A stretch of 64,000 nucleotides of DNA, taken from contig DPDV01000007.1 of the NCBI GenBank assembly GCA_003534295.1, positions 4,127 to 68,126 of the forward strand. The letters run 5' to 3'. The first letter of the stretch is position 1, and each line of letters starts with the position of its first letter. Source of the DNA: Clostridiales bacterium (GTDB taxonomy: Bacteria > Bacillota > Clostridia > TANB77 > CAG-508). Position numbers and translations under genes: made by a program. Under the pieces are notes generated by a model, which saw only the letters and a program-made list of their open reading frames with translations, had not been told where the DNA came from and ran no database searches. Shown here one piece after another: positions 8,035 through 55,195 of this stretch.

Positions 8035-8715
8035 ATGAAATTTGATGTACTTACTCTTTTTCCGGAAATGTTTGATGGACTAACTAAAAGCATAATTGGA
8101 AAAGCAAGAGAAAGAAAATTAATTGACATTAATTTAATAAACATTAGGGATTTTTCTACTGATAAGCATAAAAAGGTAGATGATACTCCATATGGTGGAG
8201 GCGCAGGAATGGTTATAAGACCAGATGTTGTATATAGTGCATATTTATCAGTAAAGGATAAAAACGCTAAAGTAATATATTTATCGCCTCAGGGAAAAAC
8301 TTTAAATCAAACTAAAGTAGAAGAACTATCAAAGGAAAAACATTTAATTTTACTATGCGGACATTACGAAGGAATTGATCAAAGAATATTAGATGAAATT
8401 GTAGATGAGGAAATATCCATAGGAGACTATGTTTTGACAGGCGGAGAAATACCAGCAATGGTGTTAATTGATTCTGTAAGTAGATATATAGATGGAGTTA
8501 TAAATAAGAACTCAATTTCAGAAGAAACATTTGCAAATGGACTTCTGGAATATCCACAATATACAAGACCAGAAATATTTTTAGGAAAAAAAGTTCCAGA
8601 TGTTTTATTATCAGGACATCACGAAAATATAAAGAAGTGGAGAAACCAAGTTTCTTTACAAATAACTAAAAATAAAAGACCAGATTTATTAAAAAAGGAA
8701 GGAGGATATCAATAA
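8035..8715 (+). CDS. trmD: tRNA (guanine37-N1)-methyltransferase TrmD
   Basis: [14 protein letters not shown]-terminus and SPOUT fold motifs. Confidence 0.9.
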
Positions 8716-9251
8716 TGGATATCATAAAATCAGTAGAACACGAACAATTGAAAAATAAGATACCAGAACTTAGAGTTGGAAATACTGTAAGAGTACACCA
8801 AAGGATAAAAGAAGGAAACAGAGAGAGAGTTCAAGTATTTGAAGGAATTATAATAAAAAAACAGGGTGGAGGAGTAAATGCTACATTTACTGTAAGAAAA
8901 ATTGCTTATGGAGTAGGTGTAGAAAAAACATTTATGGTTCATTCTCCAATGGTAGAAAAAGTAGAAGTAGTAAGAGTAGGTAAAGCAAGAAGAGCAAAAC
9001 TATATTACCTAAGAGATAGAGTTGGAAAAGCAGCTAAGACAAAAGAAAATATAGGTGCAAGAATAGAAAACAAAGAAATAATAATAAAAGAAGAAGTTAT
9101 AGAAGAACCTATATCTGAAGAAGCAACAGTATCTGTTGAAAATGCAGCAGAAGAAGCACCAGCTGTAACAACAGAAACTACAGTTGTAGAAGAAGTTGTT
9201 GATACAGTAAAAGAAGAAAATGTTGAAACAGTAAAAGAAGAAAATAAATAA
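8715..9251 (+). CDS. rplS: 50S ribosomal protein L19 with ~60-aa acidic C-terminal extension
   Basis: The N-terminal ~115 aa match L19. The tail is rich in E, V and T ([53 protein letters not shown]). Confidence 0.85.
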
Positions 9252-14311: not shown

Positions 14312-14385
<74 letters not shown>

Positions 14386-14423: not shown

Positions 14424-14495
14424 AATCAATCAGTAAAATGGTTGATTTTTTTTGCAAAATGTTGGAGTGATTTTAATCACCCGTCCTTCGAAGCG
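14424..14495 (+). promoter_or_regulatory. divergent copy (A) of the repeated promoter-plus-hairpin leader motif
   Basis: CAGTAAAATGG...GTTGGAGTGATTTTAATCACCCGTCCTTCGAAG aligns to copies B, C and D. It carries compensatory stem changes (GTGAT/ATCAC versus GGCGAT/ATCGCC). Confidence 0.35.
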
Positions 14496-14557
14496 TGGGC
14501 GAGCAAGTTCGCCCCTACACATTGTTTGTATCAAATTAATACCTACAACTTATAATC

Positions 14558-14646
14558 TATGGAGCAAATCGCATACAAGTTACGAACTAAATTCTCTTTC
14601 TAAAAACATTATATACAAAATTTTCATGAATTTCAATGAAAGTATA
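14558..14646 (+). repeat. family-2 terminal module copy 1 (left end of unit E1)
   Basis: TATGGAGCAAATCGCATACAAGTTACGAACTAAATTCTCTTTCTAAAAACATTATATAC...CAATGAAAGTATA, near-identical to the copy at 32752 and related to the copy at 25558. Confidence 0.6.
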
Positions 14647-14719
14647 TAAAGCTATCAAATTAGATGATATAATTTGCTTAAAATTACAAATAACTTATTT
14701 TAAGAGGATGTGGTTATAT

Positions 14720-15339
14720 ATGTTAGATATTAATTTTAATCAAATCATTGAAATGATTGAAAAGCGAAAAAATAATGCTTACAGAAAAGTAAATGAAGAA
14801 ATGATTTTATTGTATTTAGAAGTTGGTAAATTCTTATATGAACTAAGAGAAAATAGTAATTATGGTGATAAAATAACAACAAAAGGCTCAGATTTTATGA
14901 AAAATAATTATCCTAACATAAAGGGATTTACTAAAAGAAATATAGAACGTATGATTCAATTTTATAGTACTTATAAAGATGATGAGATTGCGACACCAAT
15001 GGTGACGCAATTGTTCTGGACAAATAATTTGTTGATTTTGAGTGGAGCTAAAAGCAAAGAGAAAAGGCATTTTTATTTAAAATTATCTATTAAAAATAAT
15101 TATTCAAAATGAATTTATATTTAGAAGCCCTAGATAGAGATGTGAAAAAAGAACAAGAGAATCCAAGTGTTGGAGTTATATTATGTAGTTCTAAAGATGA
15201 AGATGTTGTTGAATATTCAATTAGTAAAAATATGTCTCAAACTATGATTTCTGAATATAAGTTAAAATTAATAGATAAAAAAATATTAGAAACAAAACTT
15301 AAAGAAATGAAAAATTTGATAGATAATAATGATAAATAG
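14720..15339 (+). pseudogene. YhcG/DUF1016-family (PD-(D/E)XK nuclease) gene with internal deletion and frameshift
   Basis: ORF1 (to 15112) matches the YhcG N-terminal region (INFNQIIEMIEKRKNNAYRKVNEEMILLYLEVGKFL...RNIERMIQFY...QLFWTNNLLIL). ORF2 (15109-15339) matches the YhcG C-terminal tail (PSVGVILCSSKDEDVVEYSI...). The central nuclease core is missing. Confidence 0.55.
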
Positions 15340-15372
15340 TAAGTTGTCGAACAGATTGGAGAAAATTTTATT

Positions 15373-16023
15373 ATGAGTTTTAAAATAATAGACTTAGAAA
15401 AATATGATAGAAAAGAACATTTTATACATTATTTAAATAATGTACCATGTTCATATAGTATGACAGTTAATATTGATATTACAGACTTATTAAAATTAAC
15501 AAAAGAAAGAAATTATAAATTATATCCAGTAATATTATATGCAATAACAAAAGTAGTTAATAATCATATTGAATTTAGAATGAGTTTAGATGAAAACGAC
15601 AATTTAGGATATTACATTAATGTAAATCCGTCTTATACAATATTTCATAAAGATAATAACACTTTTTCAAATATATGGACCAAATACGATAGTAGTTTTG
15701 AAAAATTTTATAATAATTATGAAAAAGATATTCAAGAGTATGGAAACGAGAAAGGTTTTATAACCAAGAAATGTGAAGAAAATAATTTAATAAACATTTC
15801 GTCTATACCATGGGTAACATTTACTGAATTTAATTTGAATCTACCAAGAGGAGAAAAATATTTATTGCCAATATTTACAGTAGGTAAATTTTATGAACAA
15901 AGTAATAAAATATTATTACCATTAGCAGTACAAGTGCATCATGCAGTATGTGATGGATTTCATACGAGTAGATTTATAAATGATCTACAAGAATTCGTTA
16001 ATAATTTTGAAAATATAGTATAA
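15373..16023 (+). CDS. cat: type A chloramphenicol O-acetyltransferase
   Basis: 216 aa with the CAT active-site signature VQVHHAVCDGFH and overall CAT layout. Confidence 0.8.
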   Translation: MSFKIIDLEKYDRKEHFIHYLNNVPCSYSMTVNIDITDLLKLTKERNYKLYPVILYAITKVVNNHIEFRMSLDENDNLGYYINVNPSYTIFHKDNNTFSNIWTKYDSSFEKFYNNYEKDIQEYGNEKGFITKKCEENNLINISSIPWVTFTEFNLNLPRGEKYLLPIFTVGKFYEQSNKILLPLAVQVHHAVCDGFHTSRFINDLQEFVNNFENIV

Positions 16024-16055
16024 GGTAAATTTATATGTTGAAAGGAGATAAACTT

Positions 16056-16244
16056 ATGGATAGAAGATTAAAAATAGTAATAGAGAATTGTCCTCAAAAT
16101 CATAAATGCCCAGCTGTAAATGTTTGTCCAGTTGGAGCATTATCTCAAAAAGATTTTGAAGCACCTAAAATAGATCATAATAAGTGTATAAGATGTGGTA
16201 AATGTTCAAACTTCTGCCCTAAAAAAGCATTAGTATTAGAATAG
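16056..16244 (+). CDS. small 4Fe-4S ferredoxin-like protein
   Basis: Two Cys clusters (CPQNHKCPAVNVCP and CIRCGKCSNFCP). RBS AAAGGAG. Confidence 0.5.
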   Translation: MDRRLKIVIENCPQNHKCPAVNVCPVGALSQKDFEAPKIDHNKCIRCGKCSNFCPKKALVLE

Positions 16245-16271
16245 AAATATATGCTATAGGAGTGAAAATAG

Positions 16272-16904
16272 ATGAACATTTTAAAACCACAAAATCTTCA
16301 TATTCAAGAATTAGAAAATAAGTATTTAGTTCACATTAAAGAAGATGAAAAAATTAATTATTGCAATTTTGAAAATGAAGAATGTAATAATATAAAATTA
16401 TATGAAATTGAATTTGAGCATTGTAAATTTAATAATATTTGTATGCAAAATGGAACATTAGAAAAAATAACATTTAGAGATGTAGTATTTGAACAATGCA
16501 ATTTTTCTAATACAGAATTTTTAGAAACATCTTTTATTAAGTGCGAATTTAATAATTGTAAAGTGTCTGGGTGCAATTTTGCAGAAGATAGATTATATAA
16601 TGTAGCATTTATAAAAACAAATGCAAGCTATATGAACTTATCAATGGCTAGTATAGAAAATATCTTATTTAAAAATACAGGTTTAAAAAGTAGTTACTTT
16701 CAAGAAACTAAAATAAAGAATCTTTATTTTGAGAATAGCGATTTAACTGGAGCAAGATTTTTTAAAACAAGTCTAAAAGGAATTGATTTATCAAGTAGTA
16801 AAATAGAAGGTATTGCAATTTCAATAGAAGATATTAAAGGTGCAATAATAGACCAATTTCAAGCAACAGATTTACTATATTTAATTGGTGTAAAAATCAA
16901 ATAA
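16272..16904 (+). CDS. pentapeptide-repeat protein, Qnr-like (about 210 aa)
   Basis: Continuous A(D/N)LXX-type pentapeptide repeats (CNFSNTEFLETSFIKCEFNNCKVSGCNFAED...). Size matches the Qnr/MfpA class. Confidence 0.55.
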   Translation: MNILKPQNLHIQELENKYLVHIKEDEKINYCNFENEECNNIKLYEIEFEHCKFNNICMQNGTLEKITFRDVVFEQCNFSNTEFLETSFIKCEFNNCKVSGCNFAEDRLYNVAFIKTNASYMNLSMASIENILFKNTGLKSSYFQETKIKNLYFENSDLTGARFFKTSLKGIDLSSSKIEGIAISIEDIKGAIIDQFQATDLLYLIGVKIK

Positions 16905-16981
16905 GCATTACAGAAAAGGACACTCATTATAGCTAAATTTCATATATTATAGTATATAATATATGAAAGGAATGTTAGAAA

Positions 16982-17473
16982 ATGTATAACTCAAATGATA
17001 TGTATGGAAATAACTATGGTAATTATTATAATCCTTATAATTATATGAATTACTATAATATGAATCCAAATTATATAAGAGATTATGGACCAGAACCATT
17101 TGTTATGAATATAAATGAAGTAACAAAGCAAAACAATAATTTTCGTACAGCTTTATGGACAGGAAATCATTTACAAGTTACCTTAATGAGTATAAATGTA
17201 GGAGAAAGCATAGGGTTAGAAATGCACCCAGATGTAGACCAGTTTATACGAATTGAACAAGGATATGGACTAGTTCAAATGGGTAATAATAAAAATAATC
17301 TAAATTTTGAAAGAAAAGTATATGATGATTTTGCTATTATAATTCCAGCAGGAAAATGGCATAATCTTACCAATATAGGAAATGTACCAATTAAATTATA
17401 CTCAATATATGCACCACCAAATCATCCAAAAGGAACGATTCATAGAACGAAAGCTGATGCAGAACATGAATAA
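16982..17473 (+). CDS. cupin-domain protein with Tyr/Asn-rich N-terminal low-complexity region
   Basis: C-terminal cupin_2-like beta-barrel motifs (GESIGLEMHPDVDQF...IIPAGKWHNLTNIGN). N-terminus is MYNSNDMYGNNYGNYYNPYNY. Confidence 0.5.
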   Translation: MYNSNDMYGNNYGNYYNPYNYMNYYNMNPNYIRDYGPEPFVMNINEVTKQNNNFRTALWTGNHLQVTLMSINVGESIGLEMHPDVDQFIRIEQGYGLVQMGNNKNNLNFERKVYDDFAIIIPAGKWHNLTNIGNVPIKLYSIYAPPNHPKGTIHRTKADAEHE

Positions 17474-17477
17474 AAAA

Positions 17478-17520
17478 TGATAGATTAATCTACTAATTAG
17501 ATTAGTCTATCATTTTTTTA
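17478..17520 (+). terminator. rho-independent terminator
   Basis: TGATAGATTAATCTA / TAGATTAGTCTATCA stem of about 15 bp with one mismatch, then a T-run. Confidence 0.55.
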
Positions 17521-17570
17521 GTAACATATTAAAACTTTTAAGCATATATACATACAAGGAGGATTTATAT

Positions 17571-18098
17571 ATGACTAAAAAAAGTTCTATACTTAAATTT
17601 GAAATAATAAGTGCTATTTTTATGCTGGTAGTAGGAACACTTTTACATTTTACTTTTGGATGGTCTAATAACAATCCATTGATAGGTACATTTAGTGCTG
17701 TAAATGAAAGCACATGGGAACATTTAAAATTATTATTTTTTCCAATGCTGATAAGTACAATTATAGGATATTTTTATAAATGGAAAGTTATACCTAATTA
17801 TTTATGTGCTAAAGTGCTAGGAATTATATTATCTATGTCTTTTATAGTAGTATTTTTTTATACATATACTGGAATAATAGGAACAAACTTTGCTATAGTA
17901 GATATTGCTAGCTTTTTTATAGCAGTAGCATTAGGTCAATATATAGCATATCGAAAAATGGAATCAACATTTTCTTGCAATAAGTTAGTATCTATTATAA
18001 TTTTATTAGTATTATGTTTGTGTTTTTTTGCTTTTACATTTTTCCCACCTCATATTGCATTGTTTAAAGATCCAATAACAGGTATGTTTGGAATTTAA
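17571..18098 (+). CDS. hypothetical polytopic membrane protein
   Basis: 175 aa with several hydrophobic segments. Confidence 0.45.
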   Translation: MTKKSSILKFEIISAIFMLVVGTLLHFTFGWSNNNPLIGTFSAVNESTWEHLKLLFFPMLISTIIGYFYKWKVIPNYLCAKVLGIILSMSFIVVFFYTYTGIIGTNFAIVDIASFFIAVALGQYIAYRKMESTFSCNKLVSIIILLVLCLCFFAFTFFPPHIALFKDPITGMFGI

Positions 18099-18135
18099 AA
18101 GTATAAAATATTAATCTTATAGTAAAGGCAGAAAA

Positions 18136-18165
18136 TTGAAATTTATCTGTCTTTTATGTTATAAT
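18136..18165 (+). promoter_or_regulatory. sigma-A-type promoter (TTGAAA, 18-nt spacer, TG-extended TATAAT) ahead of the leader peptide and ABC transporter
   Basis: TTGAAA at 18136-18141, TGTTATAAT at 18157-18165. A ~100-nt leader follows. Confidence 0.5.
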
Positions 18166-18204
18166 CATCTCGACAACTTACAATCTGTAGGGGAGGTAAT
18201 TAAG

Positions 18205-18258
18205 TTGAAATTATCTCTCTTTTATTATATAATTATAACAAATTATAGTAAGTTGTAA
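18205..18258 (+). CDS. putative 17-aa leader peptide (TTG start) upstream of the ABC exporter
   Basis: Strong GGGGAGG RBS 7 nt before TTG. Peptide is LKLSLFYYIIITNYSKL. Leader segments CAACTTAC and GTAAGTTG can pair. Confidence 0.3.
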   Translation: MKLSLFYYIIITNYSKL

Positions 18259-18268
18259 GGAGAAAATA

Positions 18269-19207
18269 ATGGATAATATTATTGAAGTAAAAAATTTAGT
18301 AAAACAATATAAAGAATTAAAAGCTATAGATAACCTATCTTTTGAAGTACACGAAGGAGAAATATTAGGATTACTTGGACCAAATGGAAGTGGTAAATCT
18401 ACAACAATAAACTGCATATTATCTTTACTTGAATTTAGTAAAGGAACTATAAAAATATTTGGTAAAGATATGAAGCCAGATGCCTATGATATAAAGTCAA
18501 AAATAGGTGTTGTGTTTCAAGAAGTGTCTGTATTTGATGAATTGACTGTGTATGAAAATATAGATTATTTCTGTGGATTATATATAAAAGATAAAAAAAC
18601 TAGAAAACAATACATTGAAGATGCAATAAGATTGGTAGGATTAGAAGATTTCAAAAAATTCTATCCTAAAAAATTATCTGGAGGATTATTGCGAAGATTA
18701 AACATTGCTTGTGGTATTGCACATAAACCAAAACTTATATTCCTAGATGAGCCTACAGTTGCTGTTGATCCACAAAGTAGGAATAACATATTAGATGGAA
18801 TCAAGAAGTTAAGAGAAAATGGAGCTACTATCGTTTATACAACACACTATATGGAAGAGGTTGAAATACTTTGCGATAGAGTAATTATTCTTGATAAAGG
18901 GAAAATACTTGCTACAGGAACAACAGATGAATTGAAGAAAAAAGCTAAAATAGAAGAGAAGGTTACAGTTGAAGTAAATGATTTAGTACCTGGATATATT
19001 GAAAAAATAAAAGAATTAAAAAATGTTGATGGTGTAACATATACTAACAATGTTTTATTTGTTACATATAAAAAAGGAAAAAATAATCTAGTAGATATGA
19101 TAGATTATTTAAAAAAAGAGAGTATAAATTATAACAAAATCTATTCAGAAAGACCTACACTTAATGATGTATTCCTAGAATTAACAGGAAAGGAGCTTCG
19201 TGATTAG
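18269..19207 (+). CDS. ABC transporter ATP-binding protein
   Basis: Walker A GPNGSGKST, signature LSGGLLRRL, Walker B ILDE. Confidence 0.85.
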   Translation: MDNIIEVKNLVKQYKELKAIDNLSFEVHEGEILGLLGPNGSGKSTTINCILSLLEFSKGTIKIFGKDMKPDAYDIKSKIGVVFQEVSVFDELTVYENIDYFCGLYIKDKKTRKQYIEDAIRLVGLEDFKKFYPKKLSGGLLRRLNIACGIAHKPKLIFLDEPTVAVDPQSRNNILDGIKKLRENGATIVYTTHYMEEVEILCDRVIILDKGKILATGTTDELKKKAKIEEKVTVEVNDLVPGYIEKIKELKNVDGVTYTNNVLFVTYKKGKNNLVDMIDYLKKESINYNKIYSERPTLNDVFLELTGKELRD

Positions 19208-20389
19208 ATGTTTATTCATAATTTTAAATATGCTTTTAAAACTCTCTTTAAAAATAGGATGCTAATATTTTGGACTTTTGCTTTTCCAATAATATTAGGA
19301 ACACTTTTCAATATGGCTTTTTCAAATATAGAAAATAGTGAAAAATTAGATATTATAAATATTGCAATAATAAACAACGATGATTTTGAAAACAATGAAG
19401 CCTTTAAAACATCATTTGAAGAATTAAGTGATGAAAATAATGAAGATAGGTTATTTAATACACAATACACCACAGAGGAAAAAGCAAAAGAATTACTAGA
19501 TAATGGCGAAATAGTTGGATATATGAAATTAAAAGAAGATAAGCCAATATTAACTTTTGCCACAAGTGGAATTAATGAAACAATATTCAAATATGTAACA
19601 GAAGAAATTGAGCAAACAAGTGATATTATTAAAAATTTATCAGAAACAGAAACACAAAAACAAATTACATCTGGAAATTATAATATAAACTATGAAGAAA
19701 TCTATAATAAAGTAATAGAACTTGCAAAAGAAGATAAAGTCAAACTAAAAAATATTTCAAATAGTAATTTAAGTTATACAATGATTGAATTTTATACTCT
19801 TATAGCAATGACTTGTTTATATGGTGGAATGTTAAGTATGGGATCAATAAATCAAACACTAGCAAATATGTCTAACAAAGGAAAAAGAATAGCAGTTTCG
19901 CCTACTAAAAAAGGTACAATTATTTTAAGTAGTTTACTTGCGAGCTATATAGCACAGTTAATAGGACTTGCAATATTATTTGTATATACCCTATTCGTTC
20001 TAAAAGTCGATTATGGAGATAATACTAGTTTAATTATACTACTTGCAATGATCGGAAGCTTTGCAGGATTGACACTTGGAACTTTTGTTGGAACACTATT
20101 TAAAACGAACGAAAATGCAAAAACAGGTATTTTAATTGCATTAACAATGTTCTGGTGTTACTTATCTGGAATGATGGGAATTACAATGAAATATGTTGTT
20201 GATAAAAATGTTCCAATCATAAACAAAATCAATCCTGCAAGTATGATAACAGATGGATTATATTCACTATATTATTATGATACATTTGATAGATATTGGT
20301 TTAATATTATTAGTTTATTTATTTTTGCTTTTGTACTAATGCTAATTTCATTTTTTAGTTTAAGGAGGCAGAAATATGACAGTATTTAA
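19208..20389 (+). CDS. ABC-2 family transporter permease
   Basis: N-terminal TM segment, large extracellular loop, C-terminal multi-TM ABC-2 architecture. Translationally coupled to the ATPase gene. Confidence 0.6.
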   Translation: MFIHNFKYAFKTLFKNRMLIFWTFAFPIILGTLFNMAFSNIENSEKLDIINIAIINNDDFENNEAFKTSFEELSDENNEDRLFNTQYTTEEKAKELLDNGEIVGYMKLKEDKPILTFATSGINETIFKYVTEEIEQTSDIIKNLSETETQKQITSGNYNINYEEIYNKVIELAKEDKVKLKNISNSNLSYTMIEFYTLIAMTCLYGGMLSMGSINQTLANMSNKGKRIAVSPTKKGTIILSSLLASYIAQLIGLAILFVYTLFVLKVDYGDNTSLIILLAMIGSFAGLTLGTFVGTLFKTNENAKTGILIALTMFWCYLSGMMGITMKYVVDKNVPIINKINPASMITDGLYSLYYYDTFDRYWFNIISLFIFAFVLMLISFFSLRRQKYDSI

Positions 20390-21524
20390 AACATTTTGGA
20401 AAATTTTAAATAAGAATAAAGTAATAGTAATTATTTATACAGTAATGTTACTTATATTTGGTATTTCTAATATGCAAACAAGTGAAAAAAGTATGAATTT
20501 TGTTGCAAGTAAGCCAGATGTTGTAATCGTAAATTATGATGAAGAAAAAGGCATTACAAAAGATTTTATAAAGTATATAACAGATAATAGCAATATAGTT
20601 GAAATTGAAACAGATGAAGAAAAAATAAATGACGCTTTATTTTATAGGGATGCAAACTATGTTATATACATTCCAGAAAACTATAATAAAGACTTTATGG
20701 AAGGAAAAAATCCCCAAATAGAAATAAAAAGTACAGGAGATTATCAAGCATCACTTGAAGAAATGCTTGTTTCTAGGTACATTAAGGTAGCCAATATATA
20801 TCAAAAGAGTATTGATAATGAATACGAATTGATTGCCAAAATAAATGAAACACTATCAAAACAAGCAAAAACAGAAATTACTTCAAAATTAGATACAAAT
20901 ACTATCTCAAAGGCAACTTTTTACTACAATTTTGCAAGTTATAGTATATTAGCTTGTTTATTACTTATTATTAGTTTAATATTGAGTAGTTTTAAAGAAG
21001 AAAGAACAAGAAAGAGAATTGTTGTAAGCAGTACAAATTATAAAAAGCATAATAGAATATTACTATTATCAAATTGTTGTTATTCTTTAATATTATGGCT
21101 ATTCTATGTTATTATAAGTTTTATTATATTAGGTGATATAATGACAACAGCGACAGGAGTAGTATATATTATAAATTCTCTTGTGTTAACAATTTGTGCA
21201 ACAACAATAGCATTTTTTATAGGAAATTTAGTATCAAATAAAGGTGCAATAAATGGAATTGTAAATGTAGTAGCATTAGGCTCAAGTTTCTTATGTGGGG
21301 CTTTTGTACCTATGGAATGGCTACCAGATTCAGTATTGAAAATAGCACACACATTACCTACATATTATTACATAAGCACAAATGAAGCATTGAAAACTTT
21401 AGAGAAATTTAATTTTGCAACATTAAAACATTTAATTGTAAATATGGTAATTATGTTAGGATTCGCAATAGTATTTATAATATTAGCAAATGTAGTTTCA
21501 AGAAGAAAGAGAAAGATAGAATAA
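20376..21524 (+). CDS. ABC-2 family transporter permease (second subunit)
   Basis: Same architecture as the preceding ORF. Overlapping start. Confidence 0.6.
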   Translation: MTVFKTFWKILNKNKVIVIIYTVMLLIFGISNMQTSEKSMNFVASKPDVVIVNYDEEKGITKDFIKYITDNSNIVEIETDEEKINDALFYRDANYVIYIPENYNKDFMEGKNPQIEIKSTGDYQASLEEMLVSRYIKVANIYQKSIDNEYELIAKINETLSKQAKTEITSKLDTNTISKATFYYNFASYSILACLLLIISLILSSFKEERTRKRIVVSSTNYKKHNRILLLSNCCYSLILWLFYVIISFIILGDIMTTATGVVYIINSLVLTICATTIAFFIGNLVSNKGAINGIVNVVALGSSFLCGAFVPMEWLPDSVLKIAHTLPTYYYISTNEALKTLEKFNFATLKHLIVNMVIMLGFAIVFIILANVVSRRKRKIE

Positions 21525-21582
21525 AAGAGAAATTACAATTTATAATTAAAATTATTTGTAAATTAATAATCTTATTTCCACT

Positions 21583-21856
21583 AAAGGGGATGGGAATTTC
21601 CCATATACGAATTTGTATGGGAGTACAAATTCAGTGCTGGCTAGCTAGACATAAATTTTATTCCCATATTCAAAAAAATAAAAAGAGGATTAAATTATTC
21701 TGATAATTTTTTCCTCTTTTTGGTCGTCAGTAGATACTCTTACATAAATACCACATCTCATAGTTTTCCTCCTTGAAAGAAAGAGAACTTTTGAAGCTTT
21801 ATATAAAATAAAAACTTACGAACTTTTAAGTCCGTAAGTTGATTTCAAATGGAGCG
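21583..21856 (+). repeat. family-1 terminal module copy A (palindromic GGGAATTTCCC box, bidirectional terminator, 24-codon serine-recombinase start stub on the minus strand at 21690-21761, RBS, 11-bp hairpin, TGGAGCG)
   Basis: About 274 bp, nearly identical to 33984-34268. The minus strand reads AAGGAGG-ATG AGA TGT GGT ATT TAT GTA AGA GTA TCT ACT GAC GAC CAA... = MRCGIYVRVSTDDQKEEKIIRII*. Confidence 0.7.
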
Positions 21857-22026
21857 ATAACGTTACTTATATTCGAAAAATTATACTCCCAAGATTGATT
21901 AAATCAACTAAATAAATTATAGCAGTTTTAAAAATTATTACAATACTTTTGATAAAAAAATTGCTCGATAATATATTAAAAAAAACAGAAATATGATAAA
22001 ATTAAATTACAATGGGAGGTGAAATT

Positions 22027-22575
22027 ATGTGGATTTACATTATCATTGCAATTATCGTTTTGATTGTAATTTATGCTTTAGCTCTATATAATAGTTTTGT
22101 GAAACTAAACAATAAAGTAAAAGAGGCTTTTTCTACTATGGATGTTTATCTAAAGAAAAGATGGGATTTAATTCCTAATATAGTAGAAACAGTAAAAGGA
22201 TATGCTAAGCACGAAAAAGATACTTTAAAAGAAGTTGTAGAATTAAGAAACAGTACTTATGATAAAATGTCTGATGAAGAGAAAATTAAGACAAATGAAC
22301 AATTATCTAGTGGTATTAACAAGATTATGGCCTTAGCAGAGGCTTATCCTGATTTAAAAGCAAATGAAAATTTCAAAGATTTAAGTAAACAATTAACAAA
22401 AGTTGAAGATGATATTACTAATTCAAGAAAATATTACAATGGCGTTGTTAGAATTTATAATAATAAAGTTGAAATGTTCCCAAGTAATATTTTTGCAGGA
22501 TTGTTTGGTTACAAATCAAAAGCAATGTTTGAAGCAAGTGCAAATGAAAGAGAAAATGTAAAAGTTGAATTATAG
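22027..22575 (+). CDS. lemA: LemA-family protein
   Basis: N-terminal TM segment plus LemA-family sequence (KLNNKVKEAFSTMDVYLKKRWDLIPNIVETVKGYAKHEKDTL...). Confidence 0.75.
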   Translation: MWIYIIIAIIVLIVIYALALYNSFVKLNNKVKEAFSTMDVYLKKRWDLIPNIVETVKGYAKHEKDTLKEVVELRNSTYDKMSDEEKIKTNEQLSSGINKIMALAEAYPDLKANENFKDLSKQLTKVEDDITNSRKYYNGVVRIYNNKVEMFPSNIFAGLFGYKSKAMFEASANERENVKVEL

Positions 22576-25557: not shown

Positions 25558-25650
25558 TCTGGAGCGGTTAAGCAGCAGCTTACGAACCATAACGCTCTCT
25601 TTCTAAAAATATTATATATGAATTCTTATTAGATTTCAATGGGAGTATGG
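25558..25650 (+). repeat. family-2 terminal module copy 2 (divergent; left end of unit E2)
   Basis: TGGAGCGGTTAAGCAGCAGCTTACGAACCATAACGCTCTCTTTCTAAAAATATTATATATG...CAATGGGAGTATGG, followed by TAGTATAAT. Confidence 0.6.
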
Positions 25651-25718
25651 AGAATTTTGTTATTTTATAGTATAATATATTCAAACTTAAACTTGATTCT
25701 ATATAAGGAGGAAGTATA

Positions 25719-26186
25719 ATGGATATAAGATATGCGGTAAGAGTATTTGCTTTTAAAGATAACAAGGTTGCCTGTATTAAATATAAGAATATTAACAAAG
25801 ATTATTTTGATATACCTGGTGGAAAGATTGAAGATGGTGAAACTGAAATACAGACTTGTATAAGAGAATTTAAAGAAGAAACTGGAATGGATATTAATGA
25901 TTTAAAATGTATTGGAAATGTTGAAATTATATATCCAGGTAAAAATAAAAAATTTGTTATGAAAACATATATCGCAAATAAAGTGAATGGTAACCCATTG
26001 GATTTAGATGATAACTATGCTTATTGGCTACCTATAAATGAATTAACTAAGAATGAAAAAAGATTTGCAATAACTCATTTGTTAGATGATGATTTAATTA
26101 ATTATTTTGAATCAGAGAAAATCAATATTTTATTTACTTGCGATGATAATCATAATATTACTAATATGGAAATAAAGGAGGCATAA
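25719..26186 (+). CDS. NUDIX hydrolase
   Basis: Nudix box GGKIEDGETEIQTCIREFKEETG. Confidence 0.75.
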   Translation: MDIRYAVRVFAFKDNKVACIKYKNINKDYFDIPGGKIEDGETEIQTCIREFKEETGMDINDLKCIGNVEIIYPGKNKKFVMKTYIANKVNGNPLDLDDNYAYWLPINELTKNEKRFAITHLLDDDLINYFESEKINILFTCDDNHNITNMEIKEA

Positions 26187-26187
26187 A

Positions 26188-26394
26188 ATGAATGCAAATT
26201 TGTGGACACAATTACTTATAGCAATAGTTCCTGCACTTATTACTGGTGTTGGAAGTTTAATAATTGCTATTAAGAAATGTAAGAATGAAATTAATACACT
26301 TGAAACTAATAATAAAAAAGATTATATAGAGTTTGTGTTAGAAAAAAGTAAAGGGTATGGGAATTCCCACAGTAGAATTTATGCGGGAGTATAA
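26188..26394 (+). CDS. small hypothetical membrane protein whose 3' end runs into the partial family-1 repeat
   Basis: 68 aa with one TM segment. The last ~15 codons are encoded by repeat sequence. Confidence 0.3.
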   Translation: MNANLWTQLLIAIVPALITGVGSLIIAIKKCKNEINTLETNNKKDYIEFVLEKSKGYGNSHSRIYAGV

Positions 26395-26487
26395 ATTCAG
26401 TGCTGGCTAGACACGACTTTTACTCTCATACTCTCAAAAAATATAAAAAGAGGATTAAATTATTTTGATAATTTTTTCCTCTTTTTT
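26350..26487 (+). repeat. family-1 terminal module, partial divergent copy B (GGGAATTCCC box and terminator only)
   Basis: AAAGGGTATGGGAATTCCCACAGTAGAATTTATGCGGGAGTATAAATTCAGTGCTGGCTAG...AAAAAGAGGATTAAATTATTTTGATAATTTTTTCCTCTTTTTT. It lacks the recombinase stub and the TGGAGCG end. Confidence 0.55.
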
Positions 26488-27003: not shown

Positions 27004-27654
27004 ATGATAGTAAATACGCACGATGAAGAATTGATAAAAAAGTTTTTATTTAAATTATATTGTTGTTCTGAAGAAAAAGATTGGAAAATATCTCATGGTT
27101 TTATGGCATTACAGTATTTATTATATAGAAATTTTTCATCTCCAAAATTATTGAATAAAATGAAACCATATTCTTCAGAAATTGTTGAATTTATATCAAA
27201 GTATTATAAAAATGACTGGCGAAAAAATATAATCAGTATTGAAATTGAAAATCAAATTAATAAATTAATTTATGCTGATACACCAATAAGTTTTTTTAAG
27301 TTTTTGGAAATCATTTCAATAAAGAATAAAAATGTGCTACAAGCACAAGCATATAATAAAAACTATTTTGACTCCATTACAAAAAACATTGAATTAACTA
27401 AGGGACTTACAAATAATAAAAAGAAAATTAATTATACAAAGGATGAATTAAAGGATATTTATTTAAATAAATTAAAAATTGATAGTAACATGTGGCAATC
27501 TATCAACGATTTATGCGATAGAAGAAATAAAAATCCACTTTGTCATGCTAGTTGTGATGCTTTTTCAAATAAGCAAGATATTTCGATTTCAATTTTAAAT
27601 GATATTAATGAAATAAATAATTTAGTTGATGATATTATTAAATTATACATTTAG
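27004..27654 (+). CDS. hypothetical protein; frame is open upstream to ~26635 without a start codon (possibly 5'-truncated)
   Basis: 216-aa ORF. The in-frame upstream extension of ~120 codons has no ATG/GTG/TTG. No domain recognised. Confidence 0.35.
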   Translation: MIVNTHDEELIKKFLFKLYCCSEEKDWKISHGFMALQYLLYRNFSSPKLLNKMKPYSSEIVEFISKYYKNDWRKNIISIEIENQINKLIYADTPISFFKFLEIISIKNKNVLQAQAYNKNYFDSITKNIELTKGLTNNKKKINYTKDELKDIYLNKLKIDSNMWQSINDLCDRRNKNPLCHASCDAFSNKQDISISILNDINEINNLVDDIIKLYI

Positions 27655-27804
27655 CAAGTATAAGTTGTATATCTTTTAGTAATTTTGGACAAATATCTAA
27701 AAATATGATTATCTAAGTTTTGCCAAATTATAAAATTTGTGATATTATAATCACAACAAAAAGAACTGAGTTTCCTCAATTTTTGAAAGTTAGGATAAAT
27801 TAGT

Positions 27805-28669
27805 CTATTTGTTTTCGTATAAACAATTTGAAGAGCATAGCTTGTATATAATTTTGTACAATTTGGTTTCGCATGCAATTATACACTTGTAATGATGTTT
27901 GCCTTCGGATTGTTTTTTTCTGAAAAACAAATAAATAGAATTAGATGTATTAGCATGTGCACTTATTTGAAGTATAATTGTTACGACATTAAAAAGAATT
28001 GTTCTACCAAATTTACATCCCGTTTTAGAAATAGCCCCGTGATACGCAGAAATACCAGATTGAGATGTTACTGAATCAATTCCTAAAAAAGATACAAATT
28101 GATATTTATCATCAAATCTTGTATTGACAAATAAAATAGGATGAGGAAAATCATGTATAAAATTTAAAGCTAAATCATCATATAAATCATTAAAAACAAG
28201 GTTAAATTCGGGAAAAACAATTTCAATTAATTGTTTATATCTGTTCTTTAATCTTGTTTGTCCTTCAAATAATGACCAATATTGTCTAGCAAGTGGATTA
28301 TACATAAAGTATTCATCATTTTTATAGTAAAAATTATCGATTGTGCCTAAATAACATCTAGCAATTTTAAAACAATCTAATTTATCAGTTTTAGATTTAT
28401 TTAAAGTATCTTTAAATTGTTTAACTAGTTTAGGATTCATAACAACAGTATCAATGCCTTTTGATCTAAAATAATTTTCTACAGGCAAATGATAAATAGA
28501 AGTTGATTCCATCACAACAATTAAATTGGAATAATTTTTGATAGAATTAAATAAATTATCAAACTCATTTTTATTGTGCTCAATTAAAGTGGCATCAATA
28601 ATAATGTTTTTCAACTCATCAATAAACACTTTTGCCTTTAGCAATATCAAAACTTAAAATATGTTTCAT
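27805..28669 (-). mobile_element. IS110-family transposase gene, frameshifted near codon 14
   Basis: RBS-ATG MKHILSFDIAKGKSVY* carries the conserved GIDVAK-type N-terminus. A +1 frame continues ...VVMESTSIYHLPV...SFLGIDSVTSQSGISAYHGAISKTGCKFGRTILF, the IS110 C-terminal motif. A single-nucleotide indel in an A-run gives a pseudogene or a sequencing error. Confidence 0.65.
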
Positions 28670-28958
28670 AAAAACTCCTTTCATTAAGATTTTGGTTAAC
28701 ACCATATTGAATTACCTATATTCCTACACGCTTAATCATCCGAACTCTAATATTAAAATTAGTTTCCATTATCTACAACCGAATTAATAAATAATCATAT
28801 GGCAGACATTCATACTTTCGCACTCGAAGTGCCTGTTATACTCCGTCTTTACCGATACTTGTTATAATAACAAAAAACATAAAAAAATCAAAAATTTTAA
28901 CTTGAAGTCTTTATGTTTAACATTATACGTGTTATAATTATCCCAGGAGTTGAGGAAA

Positions 28959-29936
28959 ATGAGATTAGAAGAACTTTTAAAAAAAGAAGGATTATCAAGT
29001 TCTGAAATAAGTGAATTATTATATCGTATAAATACTGAAAAACAAGATGACGAAAAGAAAATAGATATGTATAATAGGGCAATACAAGAAGCTTCTAGAC
29101 TTGGAATTGAAGAACTATACAAGTTGTATAAAGAAATTGGAAATTATAAATTGACTGAAGAAGAAAAAAAATTACTTCAAGGAAATATAACATTTTACAT
29201 AAAAGAACAAAAAAATATGACCAAAGCAAATATACAACAAATGTTATATTTTATAAGTACTGAAAGACAAGAAGATGAAAAGAAAATAGATTTATACAAT
29301 ACAGCTCTATTTGAAGCATCAAAATTTGGTATTTCTTTCTTACATAGTATATATAAAGACATTAAAAATTACAATTTAAGTGAAGAAGAAAAGAAATTAC
29401 TACAAGGTAATGTAACATTCTATATTGGTGAACAAAAAGATATGTCGCCAGAAGATGTAAAGGAAATGCTATATTTTGTAAATGCTGAAAGACAAGATGA
29501 TGAAAAGAAAATAGATTTATTTAATAAAGCATTATTTGAAGCATCAAAATTTGGTGTACCTGTTTTACATAGTATTTATAAAGATATTAAAAATTATAAA
29601 TTAACTGAAGAAGAAAAGAAATTACTACAAGGTAATGTAACATTCTATATTGGTGAACAAAAAGATATGACACCAGAGGATTTACAACAAATGCTATTCT
29701 TTATAAACACTGAAAGACAAGATGATGAAAAGAAAATAGAATTGTATAATAAAGCATTATTTGAAGCTTCTAAACTTGGAAGCGAAGTATTAGAAAAAAT
29801 AAAAAATGAAATAGGAAGCTACAATTTAACAGATGAAGAAAAGGTTTTACTTCAAAGAAATGTAGACTTCTATATTAGTGAACAACAAAAAAATAGTACT
29901 AATACTATTGAAAGTTCAGCTGGAAGAGATAGGTAA
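28959..29936 (+). CDS. tandem-repeat protein (four ~80-aa repeats)
   Basis: Repeat unit ...MLYF(I/V)NTERQDDEKKIDLYNKALFEASKFG...LHSIYKDIKNY(K/N)L(T/S)EEEKKLLQGNVTFYIGEQKDM(T/S)PED... The DNA-level ~240-bp repeats are near identical. Start at MRLEEL, with an AGGAG RBS. Confidence 0.55.
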   Translation: MRLEELLKKEGLSSSEISELLYRINTEKQDDEKKIDMYNRAIQEASRLGIEELYKLYKEIGNYKLTEEEKKLLQGNITFYIKEQKNMTKANIQQMLYFISTERQEDEKKIDLYNTALFEASKFGISFLHSIYKDIKNYNLSEEEKKLLQGNVTFYIGEQKDMSPEDVKEMLYFVNAERQDDEKKIDLFNKALFEASKFGVPVLHSIYKDIKNYKLTEEEKKLLQGNVTFYIGEQKDMTPEDLQQMLFFINTERQDDEKKIELYNKALFEASKLGSEVLEKIKNEIGSYNLTDEEKVLLQRNVDFYISEQQKNSTNTIESSAGRDR

Positions 29937-29953
29937 CAAATAAAGACGATAGT

Positions 29954-31390
<1,437 letters not shown>

Positions 31391-31617
31391 TCAACTCCTT
31401 TTCTACAAAAAAGGGGAGACAAAAGCATTAACAAGTAATACTCTTGACTCCTCTAAAATAATTATTATTTTTTATGTAATTAAAATAGTGCATAGTATCC
31501 CTCCAATAATAAAGACGATACTGCATGTCATTTATTGGTTTTATATAATACATTTTTATTTTAGATTTGTCAAGATTTTTAAATTAATATGGTATAATGG
31601 TTACAGAGGTGAGACTT

Positions 31618-32343
31618 ATGGATAACGCATTTTTAGGTTATGCTTGTGATGTTTTAGCTGATACAGGTAAAGGATTAACTGGGAGCGAAATAGTAAAGTA
31701 TTGTAATAGATTTGCCATAGATTACAATGTTAGAATACCAGTAGATGATGTCAAAATGTTACAAATGAATCATAAACCACAAATTCCTAATAAAAGAACT
31801 GCACTTAAAATGAATCTTGAAACATTTGAATTACAACAACAAATTGAAATAATTAGATTTTTATCAGAATTACCAAAATTAAAAGATAATGAAGATATAA
31901 AAGAATTAATTAATAAAATGAATGTAAGGTTTGGACTGAGTGATAATCAAGAACTAAAAAAAGGCATTAATGAGACAAAACATTGGCTTGAAAAATATCC
32001 AAAGTCTTTTAAAGTTTATAATGAAGCATTAGATAAATATGGTAAAGGTGTTTTTCAACGAAATGTTTTAGATGATATGAGATTATCACTTGAATTATTA
32101 TTAAAGGATTTACTTAATAATGATGCATCTTTAGAAAATCAATGGAAAATTTTAGGAAAAAGATTAAAAGATGAAAATGTTTCAAAAGAAATTAGTAATG
32201 TGTTTGAAAAAATATTAAGTTATTATGGCGATTATCAAAATCAATATATTAAACATAATGATAATGTTAAAGAAAATGAAATAGAATTAATAATCAGTCA
32301 AACAAATACTATTATGCAATTTTTAATTAAAACACTAAGTTAG
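31618..32343 (+). CDS. hypothetical protein
   Basis: About 240-aa ORF. Start assigned to MDNAFLGY. No recognisable domain. Confidence 0.4.
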   Translation: MDNAFLGYACDVLADTGKGLTGSEIVKYCNRFAIDYNVRIPVDDVKMLQMNHKPQIPNKRTALKMNLETFELQQQIEIIRFLSELPKLKDNEDIKELINKMNVRFGLSDNQELKKGINETKHWLEKYPKSFKVYNEALDKYGKGVFQRNVLDDMRLSLELLLKDLLNNDASLENQWKILGKRLKDENVSKEISNVFEKILSYYGDYQNQYIKHNDNVKENEIELIISQTNTIMQFLIKTLS

Positions 32344-32679
32344 TGTTTTTTTTAAGTAATCTTCTAATTCAGATAATTTAATCTTATTAGATAAGTTCTC
32401 AATGTATATCTCATTAGAATAATTAAAAGCAAGAAATGTAATATTATTAATGATTATTCTATGTGGTTCAACATAAGTTAAGTTAGTTCTATCAATCTTT
32501 CTTATACTACCATTTATGATTTTTAGAGTAGTATTAGAAAACGCACATATTAGTTCTAACTTCTTTTTTAATGATTCTTCAATAACAACTTCTTGCTTAA
32601 TAATATTTACCATAAATACCATCCTTTCTTTGTAGGATAGTCTTTGTATGACTTCCAAGCCTGACACGTGTGAGTCCAA
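32335..32679 (-). CDS. hypothetical protein
   Basis: 114-aa ORF convergent with the previous gene. Confidence 0.3.
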   Translation of the reverse strand: MDSHVSGLEVIQRLSYKERMVFMVNIIKQEVVIEESLKKKLELICAFSNTTLKIINGSIRKIDRTNLTYVEPHRIIINNITFLAFNYSNEIYIENLSNKIKLSELEDYLKKTLT

Positions 32680-32751
32680 TACACAAAAAAACTAACCCAA
32701 ACCTTGAGTTAGTTGTATTAAAAAAGCTCGAAAAGTTCGAGCGTATTTCCT

Positions 32752-32840
32752 TATGGAGCAAATCGCATACAAGTTACGAACTAAGTTCTCTTTCTAAAAA
32801 CATTATACATAAAGTTTTATTAAAATTCAATGGGAGTATA
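32752..32840 (+). repeat. family-2 terminal module copy 3 (left end of unit E3)
   Basis: TATGGAGCAAATCGCATACAAGTTACGAACTAAGTTCTCTTTCTAAAAACATTATACAT...CAATGGGAGTATA, followed by ATATAGTATAAT. Confidence 0.6.
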
Positions 32841-32978
32841 TGAAAATTTAATAAAATATAGTATAATTAGTTTTAAATGATATTTATTATGCCACTTCCG
32901 CGAAGTTTCGTGTATATATCTATCCTAACACTAAAATATGTATCATAAAATACTAAAATCTAGAGGAGTGAATTTAAA

Positions 32979-33983: not shown

Positions 33984-34261
33984 AAAGAGGGTATGGGAAT
34001 TTCCCATATACGAATTTGTATGGGAGTACAAATTCAGTGCTGGCTAGCTAGCTAGTTAGACATATATTTTATTCACATATTCAAAAAAACTAAAAAGAGG
34101 ATTAAATTATTCTGATAATTTTTTCCTCTTTTTGGTCGTCAGTAGATACTCTTACATAAATACCACATCTCATAGTTTTCCTCCTTGAAAGAAAGAGAAC
34201 TTTTGAAGCTTTATATAAAATAAAAACTTACGAACTTTTAAGTCCGTAAGTTGATTTCAAA

Positions 34262-34268
<7 letters not shown>
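33984..34268 (+). repeat. family-1 terminal module copy C (with recombinase start stub on the minus strand at 34102-34173), directly abutting the tRNA-Gly 3' end
   Basis: Near-identical to 21583-21856 apart from a short CTAGCTAGTTAGACATATATT insert. Its terminal TGGAGCG is the CCA end of the tRNA at 34262-34335. Confidence 0.7.
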
Positions 34269-34335
<67 letters not shown>

Positions 34336-39035: not shown

Positions 39036-39095
39036 TAGTGTAAAGTAATCCATGAAAAATATAGGGGCGATTTTAATCGCCCGCACTTCAAAGAA
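39032..39095 (+). promoter_or_regulatory. copy B of the repeated promoter-plus-hairpin leader motif
   Basis: ATGATAGTGTAAAGTAATCCATGAAAAATATAGGGGCGATTTTAATCGCCCGCACTTCAAAGAAATA, immediately before the RBS of ORF 39107. Confidence 0.4.
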
Positions 39096-39106
39096 ATAAA
39101 GGAGGA

Positions 39107-55121: not shown

Positions 55122-55195
55122 ATGATAGTGTAAAGTAATCTATGAAAATGTAGGGGCGATTTTAATCGTCTGTACTTCGAAGAAATTACTAAAGA
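55122..55195 (+). promoter_or_regulatory. copy C of the repeated promoter-plus-hairpin leader motif (upstream of splB)
   Basis: ATGATAGTGTAAAGTAATCTATGAAAATGTAGGGGCGATTTTAATCGTCTGTACTTCGAAGAAATTACTAAAGAAG. The C-to-T change in the 3' stem keeps a G-U pair. Confidence 0.4.

Follow-up and report, generated by a model that had tools for sequence, protein, structure and literature searches.

A type A chloramphenicol acetyltransferase gene in a probable run of fused cassettes from a gut Clostridium

The window discussed here, i.e., the whole stretch of 64,000 nt of Clostridiales DNA that was analysed (ca. 27% G+C), carries an intact cat gene whose product, judged from its sequence, is a divergent yet canonical type A chloramphenicol acetyltransferase (CAT). 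This gene probably lies in a 2.85-kb run of fused cassettes (15336-18184, referred to as the cat block) that is part of a cassette system of an uncultured human-gut Clostridium and its relatives in which a junction element of ca. 43 nt is found between the cargo genes. The block encodes CAT, a ferredoxin (Fd), a pentapeptide-repeat protein (PRP), a cupin and a DUF6512 protein; it occurs at 98.4% to 100% identity in at least four contexts, and its borders are halves of the junction element. The block and its boundary motifs are composed as follows:

14545-14556, minus strand: E-like half-site ACAACTTATAAT with one mismatch, directly before repeat L1
15336-15347, plus strand: B half-site ATAGTAAGTTGT, left boundary of the cat block, 25 nt before the cat ATG
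15373-16023, plus strand: cat, type A chloramphenicol O-acetyltransferase, 216 aa (NCBIfam NF000491, Pfam CAT)
16035-16244, plus strand: 4Fe-4S ferredoxin, 69 aa (Pfam Fer4), missing from the original prediction for this DNA
16272-16904, plus strand: pentapeptide-repeat protein, 210 aa (Pentapeptide_4, 127.5 bits in four stretches)
16982-17473, plus strand: cupin (Pfam)
17571-18098, plus strand: DUF6512 membrane protein (Pfam)
18136-18165, plus strand: outward-facing promoter-like site TTGAAA-18-TATAAT near the 3' end of the block
18173-18184, plus strand: E half-site ACAACTTACAAT, right boundary of the cat block, an inverted copy of the 12-mer described below

The block starts with ATAGTAAGTTGTCGA and finishes with TCGACAACTTACAAT, which form an inverted repeat of 14/15 bp, and the flanking sequences diverge directly outside of it. 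Each of the three exact copies of the 12-mer ATWGTAAGTTGT in 64 kb, at 15336 (plus strand), 18173 (minus strand) and 18245 (plus strand), marks a module boundary or breakpoint. Context breakpoints were determined by blastn of the island around cat against other strains, and the segments shared with these strains end sharply at 15332/15334, at 18184 and at ca. 21527-21537. The B half-site at 15336-15347 is the breakpoint in L003, L004, L010 and L021 (labels of this kind denote comparison strains or loci carrying related DNA), and the window diverges from L007 and L024 just past the E-like half-site at 14545-14556. A breakpoint at ca. 22004, where similarity decays gradually, was not counted as an event at a core site.

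In the first of the four contexts, that of the window, the block is located downstream of a tRNA-Gly gene and past a broken yhcG/DUF1016 gene. The second is the same site with a KilA-N gene upstream and an HD-domain gene instead of the ABC-2 genes that follow the block in the window. In the third, the block stands behind an inserted element with TnpV and a large serine recombinase (LSR); a TnpV gene and a 587-aa LSR indeed adjoin the island in L007, L020 and L022. The fourth is an unrelated locus where the block is part of a ca. 10.8-kb element splitting an EPSP_synthase-family gene, seen on contigs of more than 1 Mb from two samples. This element (6896-17679 of L003, also present in L004) has a terminal 547-aa LSR, interrupts a murA-like member of the family and carries a DD-carboxypeptidase (Peptidase_S11/Beta-lactamase2), VanZ, DUF2651, the cat block and RhuM as cargo. 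In strain L021, whose flank is 98.4% identical, a NUDIX gene and a 102-aa open reading frame (ORF) take the place of cat and the ABC-2 genes, between the same yhcG remnant and 12-mer on the left and the same R-type repeat and lemA on the right. A comparison of the window with seven non-identical strains gave 13 changes in 18,831 nt (0.069%) for the cat block and 125 in 28,189 nt (0.44%) for the adjacent 4 kb of core genes. This 6.4-fold difference (Fisher p = 1.4e-15) is in keeping with a block that spread recently, or was homogenised, within the species.

The original prediction that cat is or was mobile thus agrees with the identical protein in at least four contexts, the sharp breakpoints and the presence of other genes at the site in one strain. 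It had also described a repeat-bounded unit E1 with modular ends. The bounding repeats exist, though they represent two different families (L and R) and not copies of one, and we rejected L1 and R1 as mobile ends of the cat unit because the breakpoints are found elsewhere, at the 12-nt half-sites 15336-15347 and 18173-18184. As to its suggested check for absence of the unit from close relatives, one close strain (L021) has other genes at the site, and cat is near-universal in the species. As a unit, the block has probably moved between the tRNA-Gly island, the LSR element in the EPSP_synthase-family gene and other arrangements.

We assigned protein families by Pfam and NCBIfam profile scores against curated cutoffs and structural relatives by PDB matches. 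The cat product reaches 304.1 bits with the CatA model NF000491 (cutoff 270; profile positions 1-208 of 208) and 282.3 bits with Pfam CAT PF00302 (cutoff 23.5; E = 4e-84). It includes VQVHHAVCDGFHTSRF and the active-site block VQVHHAVCDGFH with HHAVCDGFH, and can be aligned end to end with the structures of CAT I and CAT III; VQVHHAVCDGFH and ISSIPW match the equivalent residues of CAT I (1NOC), and the transition-state serine of the S-x-x-PW motif is retained. The intact ORF, the score above the CatA cutoff and the full-length alignment to CAT I/III all support the prediction of a complete type A CAT with the HHAVCDGFH motif. By the mechanism of its family, this enzyme would acetylate the 3-hydroxyl of chloramphenicol using acetyl-CoA, and the drug would then no longer bind the ribosome.

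Known resistance alleles are only distantly related to this gene. Its closest counterpart in PLSDB is a catA of a Paraclostridium plasmid at 52.6% identity, followed by catA13 (ca. 50%), which we take to be the allele nearest to catP, and catA7 (45%); no plasmid-borne cat with at least 60% identity was found in PLSDB. Named chromosomal CATs of Clostridium show 54% to 57% identity, and metagenome proteins of 64% to 85% identity are closer relatives than these. All relatives at 64% to 99% identity are derived from metagenomes, and among species-representative genomes the only near-identical CAT (99%) is found in the metagenome-assembled genome (MAG) 'Clostridium sp. 28_12'. The contigs shown with the exact CAT are metagenome assemblies and one MAG, and their informative record names refer to the human gut.

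As a yardstick for prevalence we used the exact L19 protein, encoded 6 kb from cat, because the exact TsaE allele was too rare (7 contigs). The assembly collection has 7,219 indexed blocks with the exact CAT and 6,181 with the exact L19, which makes cat about as widespread as a ribosomal protein of the same species. The original prediction would have been undermined in part by universally conserved core genes at this locus; by these block counts the presence of cat is indeed nearly universal, and its position is not conserved. We note that rplS (8715-9251) encodes a product of 178 aa with consistent length across strains. L19 is expected to have ca. 115 aa, so the window's version has either an N-terminal extension or an upstream start overlapping trmD.

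More distant CAT relatives (64% to 73% identity) are lone genes beside bacA, in a housekeeping neighbourhood or in the context of a conjugative element, and the five-gene arrangement of the block is thus specific to this species group; a cat-Fd-PRP operon conserved across species was ruled out for the same reason. One of these relatives (73% identity; L032 1-8654) is surrounded by a VirB4-like ATPase, a CHAP hydrolase and sortases in what appears to be a conjugative element of another gut organism. In L012, a different species with a CAT of 73% identity, ACAAATTACAAT begins 2 nt past the cat stop codon and a terminator comes next, which gives cat the look of a single-gene cassette there.

A CAT-family protein could also acetylate another endogenous or dietary substrate and confer no chloramphenicol resistance in vivo. 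This would explain universal retention of a very uniform sequence in a commensal with no obvious chloramphenicol exposure, and it is in line with the existence of three differently named CatA-like families in NCBIfam, with relatives of 64% to 70% identity as solo genes in housekeeping neighbourhoods and with the lack of a chloramphenicol-inducible leader upstream of cat in the window. Nevertheless, we consider it quite unlikely, given that the protein exceeds the CatA equivalog cutoff (304 against 270 bits) and that its scores with the three CatA-like models (152, 76 and 68 bits) fall far short of the respective cutoffs of 275, 300 and 250, besides its intact catalytic residues and end-to-end alignment to CAT I/III.

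The junction element itself is an imperfect palindrome, AAATTACAAT-N19-ATAGTAAKTTG, with arms ACAAATTAC and GTAATTTGT and an N19 spacer that is conserved in its own right. A scan of public collections with this pattern returned one viral contig and at least 120 metagenome stretches. Among the matches listed, to which the following numbers refer, many record names point to the human gut and the median G+C content is 25.5%. Conservation across 107 distinct instances has a sharp onset at A.AAATTACAAT and ends past ATAGTAATTTG. None of the instances is located inside a gene, and of the 106 instances that have called genes on both sides, 96 have both of these on the strand of the element. The element mostly starts between -1 and +20 nt past the upstream stop codon and typically ends 6 to 26 nt before the downstream start codon. 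The products of the genes next to 99 elements fall into at least 83 protein clusters (40 to 532 aa, median 164); among the 38 downstream clusters, 12 occur with at least two different upstream partners. Their cargo comprises VanZ, DD-carboxypeptidase, GNAT acetyltransferases, a DNA-alkylation repair protein, polysaccharide deacetylase, Xre regulators and many small membrane proteins.

Some arrays consist of 13 to 19 small genes on the same strand with full, core-only or right-arm-only junctions and recurring promoter modules, and one starts directly past a tRNA gene. Others adjoin type IV secretion system (T4SS) coupling proteins and LSRs, which places them inside conjugative or integrative elements. 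In L003, three complete copies are found in 2.2 kb, and junction elements separate a 188-aa ORF, an S11 carboxypeptidase with VanZ, DUF2651 and the cat block, in this order. The array starts with an extended -10 promoter and a right-arm-only site, an arrangement reminiscent of Pc/attI. As single strands, junction elements fold into a 9-bp and a 4-bp stem with one unpaired position (z of -4.4 and -5.0). We rejected a known RNA family because no Rfam match was obtained: a gathering-threshold scan of the window reported only the two tRNAs, and a permissive scan of L003 6800-13600 reported nothing. Covariation between the two arms was likewise dismissed, as the A/A versus T/T signal at one position stems from a near-palindrome being read on both strands.

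The exchange point can be located from both sides of the junctions. Up to six different upstream sequences were seen before one and the same downstream gene, with element and spacer constant and divergence setting in just left of AATTACAAT. In turn, the cat block and cupin-DUF6512 modules keep a 3' end of ...TTACAA(T) and diverge directly after it in at least three contexts, with three different downstream contexts of the cupin-DUF6512 module parting right past TTACAA(T). Together, these patterns place the crossover in a TTACAAT core and assign the rest of the junction element to the 5' end of the downstream cassette. Cassettes would accordingly be exchanged by recombination within this core, possibly via a circular intermediate, while the remaining element would move with the downstream gene. 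In the cat block, the 5' end retains a right-arm half-site and the 3' end a core half-site, and the two make up its terminal inverted repeat. Core-only junctions share just 7 to 10 nt, which is too short for RecA-dependent recombination, and we infer that a site-specific process is favoured over a homologous one.

Tentatively, we put forward that recombination takes place at the junction element in an as yet undescribed, integron-like system of gut Clostridia, which would capture and shuffle cassettes with a recombinase provided in trans. Such a recombinase might be of the tyrosine, serine or HUH type and might act within conjugative elements, serine-recombinase elements and tRNA islands. On the same tentative footing, its mobile cassettes would include cat, the pair of DD-carboxypeptidase and VanZ, and dozens of small genes.

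Several observations weigh against this view of cat and its junction elements. All comparison DNA comes from metagenome assemblies, in which repeats can yield chimeric joins, and the right-hand side of L010 is a possible assembly chimera. Some exchanges map to the right arm and not to the core, and recombination between any conserved stretch would explain these equally well; L010, for instance, differs from L003 by a deletion that joins the first site of the array to cat with a crossover within the right arm. No recombinase is consistently adjacent, with an LSR at 10, a tyrosine integrase at 4, an IS110 element at 2 and a Y1 transposase at 1 of 121 listed loci. The 64-kb window has half-sites and no complete junction element, and cassettes in general do not share the complementarity (C/G pairing) seen between the two ends of the cat block. 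Finally, the block had no megablast match among deposited plasmids and phages, and cat is near-universal in its species and behaves largely like an intrinsic gene. The only tyrosine recombinase beside an array (in L034) is convergent with the array and gave a generic phage-integrase match. A driver of the HUH/Y1 type (IS608-like, TTAC-targeting) was also discarded, since a homolog was found in 1 of 121 listed loci and not adjacent to the element; this result is a lead only.

The prevalence equal to that of a ribosomal protein and the lack of plasmid or phage matches would both be expected if cat and its neighbours were intrinsic and vertically inherited, with their varied surroundings reflecting the turnover of other elements at a tRNA-Gly hotspot. 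The island is indeed full of decayed serine-recombinase elements with IS110 and Mob remnants, and the order yhcG remnant-cat-Fd-PRP-cupin-DUF6512 is retained in most strains. We nonetheless regard vertical inheritance as unlikely. It does not account for the block at an unrelated locus (two samples, contigs of more than 1 Mb), where identity is confined exactly to the segment between the inverted 12-mers, for other genes inside identical boundaries in L021, or for a block that is 6-fold less diverged than the adjacent core genes.

The main alternative to a dedicated recombination system, possible though doubtful in our view, is that the ca. 43-nt element primarily acts at the RNA level or in regulation (as an intercistronic stabiliser, processing site or translation enhancer) and that shuffling is a by-product of general homologous or microhomology recombination at such an intergenic repeat with no dedicated recombinase. 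Among the matches listed, the element always sits in transcribed orientation between a stop codon and the next ribosome-binding site (RBS) and can form a hairpin, and both the lack of a consistently adjacent recombinase and the occasional right-arm crossovers fit this idea. Against it speak the exchanges at core-only junctions, whose 7 to 10 shared nt are beyond the reach of RecA, and the clustering of copies in mobile-element arrays, with zero complete ones in the 64-kb window compared to the three in 2.2 kb of L003. It also leaves unexplained why one element precedes at least 80 unrelated genes, and no Rfam family matches it.

The inverted repeats ATAGTAAGTTGTCGA and TCGACAACTTACAAT exactly at the breakpoints could alternatively mean that the cat block is a non-autonomous transposon (a mobile insertion cassette, MITE-like) whose 14/15-bp ends are used in trans by the transposase of an insertion sequence (IS), and the island does contain IS110-family genes, as does the region next to the block in L007. 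IS110-family elements, however, are not known to have terminal inverted repeats. We found no target-site duplication at the four insertion contexts and no transposase with matching ends, and the end motifs are halves of a junction element common to dozens of unrelated single-gene cassettes, which makes this explanation very improbable.

The block itself is composite, probably a run of fused cassettes of cat, Fd, PRP and cupin-DUF6512, with the ABC-2 transporter as the next and independent module. Fd homologs of 82% to 84% identity are found alone and without cat in the arrays of L043 and L121, and the cupin-DUF6512 pair (78% to 83% identity) occurs without cat in L097, L106, L148 and L039. The promoter module seen at 18205-18233 of the window also precedes the cupin gene in these four loci, and a 3' end of promoter plus ...TTACAAT as in the window is shared by cupin-DUF6512 modules elsewhere and by L121. 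With Fd and cupin-DUF6512 found without cat and cat found solo in L012, the adjacency of cat and PRP reflects array history and not an operon with a single function; cat, Fd, PRP and cupin-DUF6512 are independent cassettes that merely adjoin each other, and nothing speaks for a functional "resistance operon".

For the PRP, the best PDB match is 2W7Z, which we take to be EfsQnr (E = 2.6e-21; 30.3% identity over 175 ungapped residues), and further matches are 6FLS, AlbG, QnrB1 and MfpA, spanning residues 26-208. These solved relatives are mostly topoisomerase-protecting proteins, and the PRP has the Qnr-type architecture of ca. 210 to 220 aa with pentapeptide repeats throughout. Its score with the Qnr family model NF033086, however, is 57.9 bits against a cutoff of 240, and the models for QnrB, E, A, S, VC, C and D give 26 to 48 bits against cutoffs of 425 to 500, that for MfpA 29 against 360. 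The Qnr/MfpA class assigned by the original prediction thus holds for length and nearest structures and not for family scores or for the 30% identity to EfsQnr, so that "Qnr-like" describes resemblance and not membership. We regard the PRP as a candidate for a protein that works like Qnr from outside the Qnr family, and it may shield gyrase or topoisomerase IV as EfsQnr-type proteins do. In L003 and L004, its gene is broken up into two ORFs.

Downstream of the cat block, the ABC-2 module is made up of the following features:

18205-18233, plus strand: second promoter-like site, at the 5' end of the ABC-2 module
18245-18256, plus strand: B half-site ATAGTAAGTTGT, a copy of the 12-mer at the 5' end of the module
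18269-19207, plus strand: ABC ATPase (ABC_tran, 119 bits, and DrrA C-terminal domain)
19208-20389, plus strand: ABC-2 permease 1 (ABC2_membrane_3, 153 bits)
20376-21524, plus strand: ABC-2 permease 2 (ABC2_membrane_3, 106 bits)
21530-21539, plus strand: E core AAATTACAAT, right boundary of the module, 6 nt past the permease stop codon

The three genes abut or overlap and combine an ATPase with ABC2_membrane-family permeases, as expected of an ABC-2 exporter. The ATPase scores 266 bits against the cutoff of 312 for the DrrA subfamily, so no substrate can be assigned to the transporter. The original prediction correctly recognised the three-gene exporter and counted it to the same unit as cat, but it is a separate module with a promoter-like site and boundary motif of its own, and these genes are missing or substituted in L002, L006, L008, L009, L003 and L004. 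Farther downstream, 22004-22027 is a core-only junction with AAATTACAAT followed by GGGAGG, and the true start of lemA is likely at ca. 22027; the ATG at 22012 chosen by the ORF finder is probably wrong because other assemblies call a 182-aa product. The sequence of this junction suggests that lemA-DUF2207 may be cassette-derived as well.

The block and the ABC-2 module are located in a variable island of ca. 20 kb between two tRNA-Gly genes (called with ARAGORN and Rfam), with the following landmarks (no strand is assigned to the repeats):

14312-14385, plus strand: tRNA-Gly(tcc), left edge of the island (ARAGORN, Rfam); strain synteny ends just past it
14558-14684, 25596-25676 and 32752-32878: L-type repeats L1, L2 and L3; L1 starts with TGGAGCA
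14636-15339, plus strand: disrupted YhcG/DUF1016 PD-(D/E)XK nuclease gene (ORFs 14636-15112 and 15109-15339)
21585-21856, 26351-26486 and 33988-34268: R-type repeats, a family distinct from L
34262-34335, minus strand: inverted tRNA-Gly(tcc), right edge of the island (ARAGORN, Rfam)

The nuclease gene has its DUF1016_N (105 bits) and YhcG_C (59 bits) Pfam domains on separate ORFs and is broken in every strain seen. L1 contains a strong promoter-like site on the minus strand (14636-14608), and truncated minus-strand 'Resolvase' genes lie just left of L-type repeats in other strains. R1 (21585-21856) holds palindromes, a terminator-like hairpin (21680-21721) and the truncated N-terminus of a serine recombinase (21690-21761, minus strand, MRCGIYVRVSTDDQ...) that is cut after 23 codons. 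Its part from 21672 to 21856 is 99% identical to 34084-34268, the sequence just 3' of the inverted tRNA-Gly gene, and so copies the terminator of that minus-strand gene and its last 7 nt, TGGAGCG, at 21850-21856. The motif TGGAGC(A/G), the reverse complement of the tRNA 3' end, is found at 14561, 21850, 25590, 32755 and 34262, i.e., at the edges of L and R repeats. The L and R repeats seem to stem from serine-recombinase elements that accreted at tRNA-Gly and decayed, representing their promoter and end regions, and the island as a whole would consist of such accreted elements that took in cassettes.

A NUDIX gene lies at 25719-26186. The right half of the island (27004-33974) has defence-type genes for HEPN_AbiA_CTD (27004-27654) and Fic (32979-33974), and debris of mobile elements there includes an IS110-family fragment (27805-28650, minus strand) and a Mob_Pre relaxase (29954-31153, minus strand). 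Four tandem repeats of 225 nt (29027-29890; 74% to 84% identity) lie in a 328-aa ORF at 28950-29936. A REP-like family of intergenic hairpins, GGGGCGATTTTAATCGCCCGCACTTCRAAG, is present at 39034-39097, 55123-55186 and 58036-58099, with a related copy at ca. 14466-14500 just after the plus-strand tRNA-Gly gene. At the other end of the window, comparison of positions 1-1300 with 1-2700 of L017-L026 revealed a large serine recombinase (521 to 535 aa, DUF4368) in most strains; L021 has an intact cotJA-cotJB-cotJC at this position, and in L026 the recombinase is accompanied by a Mn_catalase fragment of 137 aa. These arrangements suggest a skin-like intervening element in a spore-coat gene, and the left end of the window falls in or near it.

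Taken by themselves, the genes are a modest addition to the resistome: a divergent CAT with at most ca. 57% identity to named alleles in essentially every strain of a common gut Clostridium, next to a PRP that could be a quinolone-protection protein. What makes the locus of wider interest is the vehicle: the data point to a cassette system that resides in conjugative elements, has a ca. 43-nt element with an exchange point that could be mapped, and carries at least 80 families of cargo genes. If our interpretation is true, this would be a native analogue of integrons where integrons are almost absent, with a bearing on their scarcity in Firmicutes. Its element would also give a signature with which mobile genes of gut Firmicutes can be searched for, and the system would reveal a route for a commensal cat into conjugative elements.

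Compared with known type A CATs (CAT I/III, catA7, catA13 and chromosomal ones of Clostridium), the product of the window's gene shares the length of 216 aa, the catalytic block and full-length alignment, but its gene is a promoterless cassette with at most 52.6% identity to plasmid cats and 54% to 57% to Clostridium CATs. The genes cat86 and that of pC194 carry a leader-peptide attenuator, unlike the cat studied here. With Tn4451/Tn4453 (catP, TnpX) it has in common that a clostridial cat is associated with LSR elements; unlike there, cat lies outside the TnpV/LSR element, the block is bounded by half-sites of the junction element, and identity to catA13 is ca. 50%. Similarly, the PRP shares with EfsQnr, QnrB1, AlbG and MfpA a length of ca. 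210 aa made up almost wholly of pentapeptide repeats and differs by its identity of 30% to EfsQnr.

Among cassette systems, the arrays are integron-like in their same-strand and mostly promoterless single genes, variable cassette order between genomes, imperfect palindromes with an unpaired position and exchange at a short core, as well as in their cargo of resistance-type genes and many small proteins, the promoter and partial site at the array start and the occasional internal promoter modules. The attC sites of integrons are 57 to 141 nt long; the junction element, at ca. 43 nt, is too short, has no RYYYAAC/GTTRRRY boxes (R''/R', as judged by eye) and travels with the downstream gene. No IntI-type integrase was found in the island, and tyrosine recombinases are present in just 4 of 121 listed junction-bearing loci, so we rejected a classical integron. 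Integrons are found only very occasionally in Firmicutes for reasons that are unclear, with one complete integron reported in all of them (IntegronFinder 2.0, PMC9024848). Unlike integrons, the arrays described here sit in tRNA islands and in conjugative or LSR elements of Clostridium.

The pdif modules of Acinetobacter, which are discrete units of resistance and accessory genes, are bounded by short inverted recombination sites, shuffle between replicons and encode no recombinase (PMC6449649, PMC13141974). With its inverted sites at both ends the cat block is pdif-like, but pdif modules have been described only from plasmids and chromosomes of Acinetobacter, and most units here are single genes in one orientation. 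A search of the open-access literature found no description of clostridial cassette systems or of pdif-like modules outside Acinetobacter. Read as an imperfect palindrome, ACAAATTAC-AATTTA-GTAATTAGT, the core has a 9-6-9 layout, compared to 28 bp and 11-6-11 for dif-like sites, and it does not resemble the dif sequence of Bacillus, from which that of this host may differ. Integron cassettes and Acinetobacter pdif modules are the closest relatives of the system in concept, and it appears to match neither.

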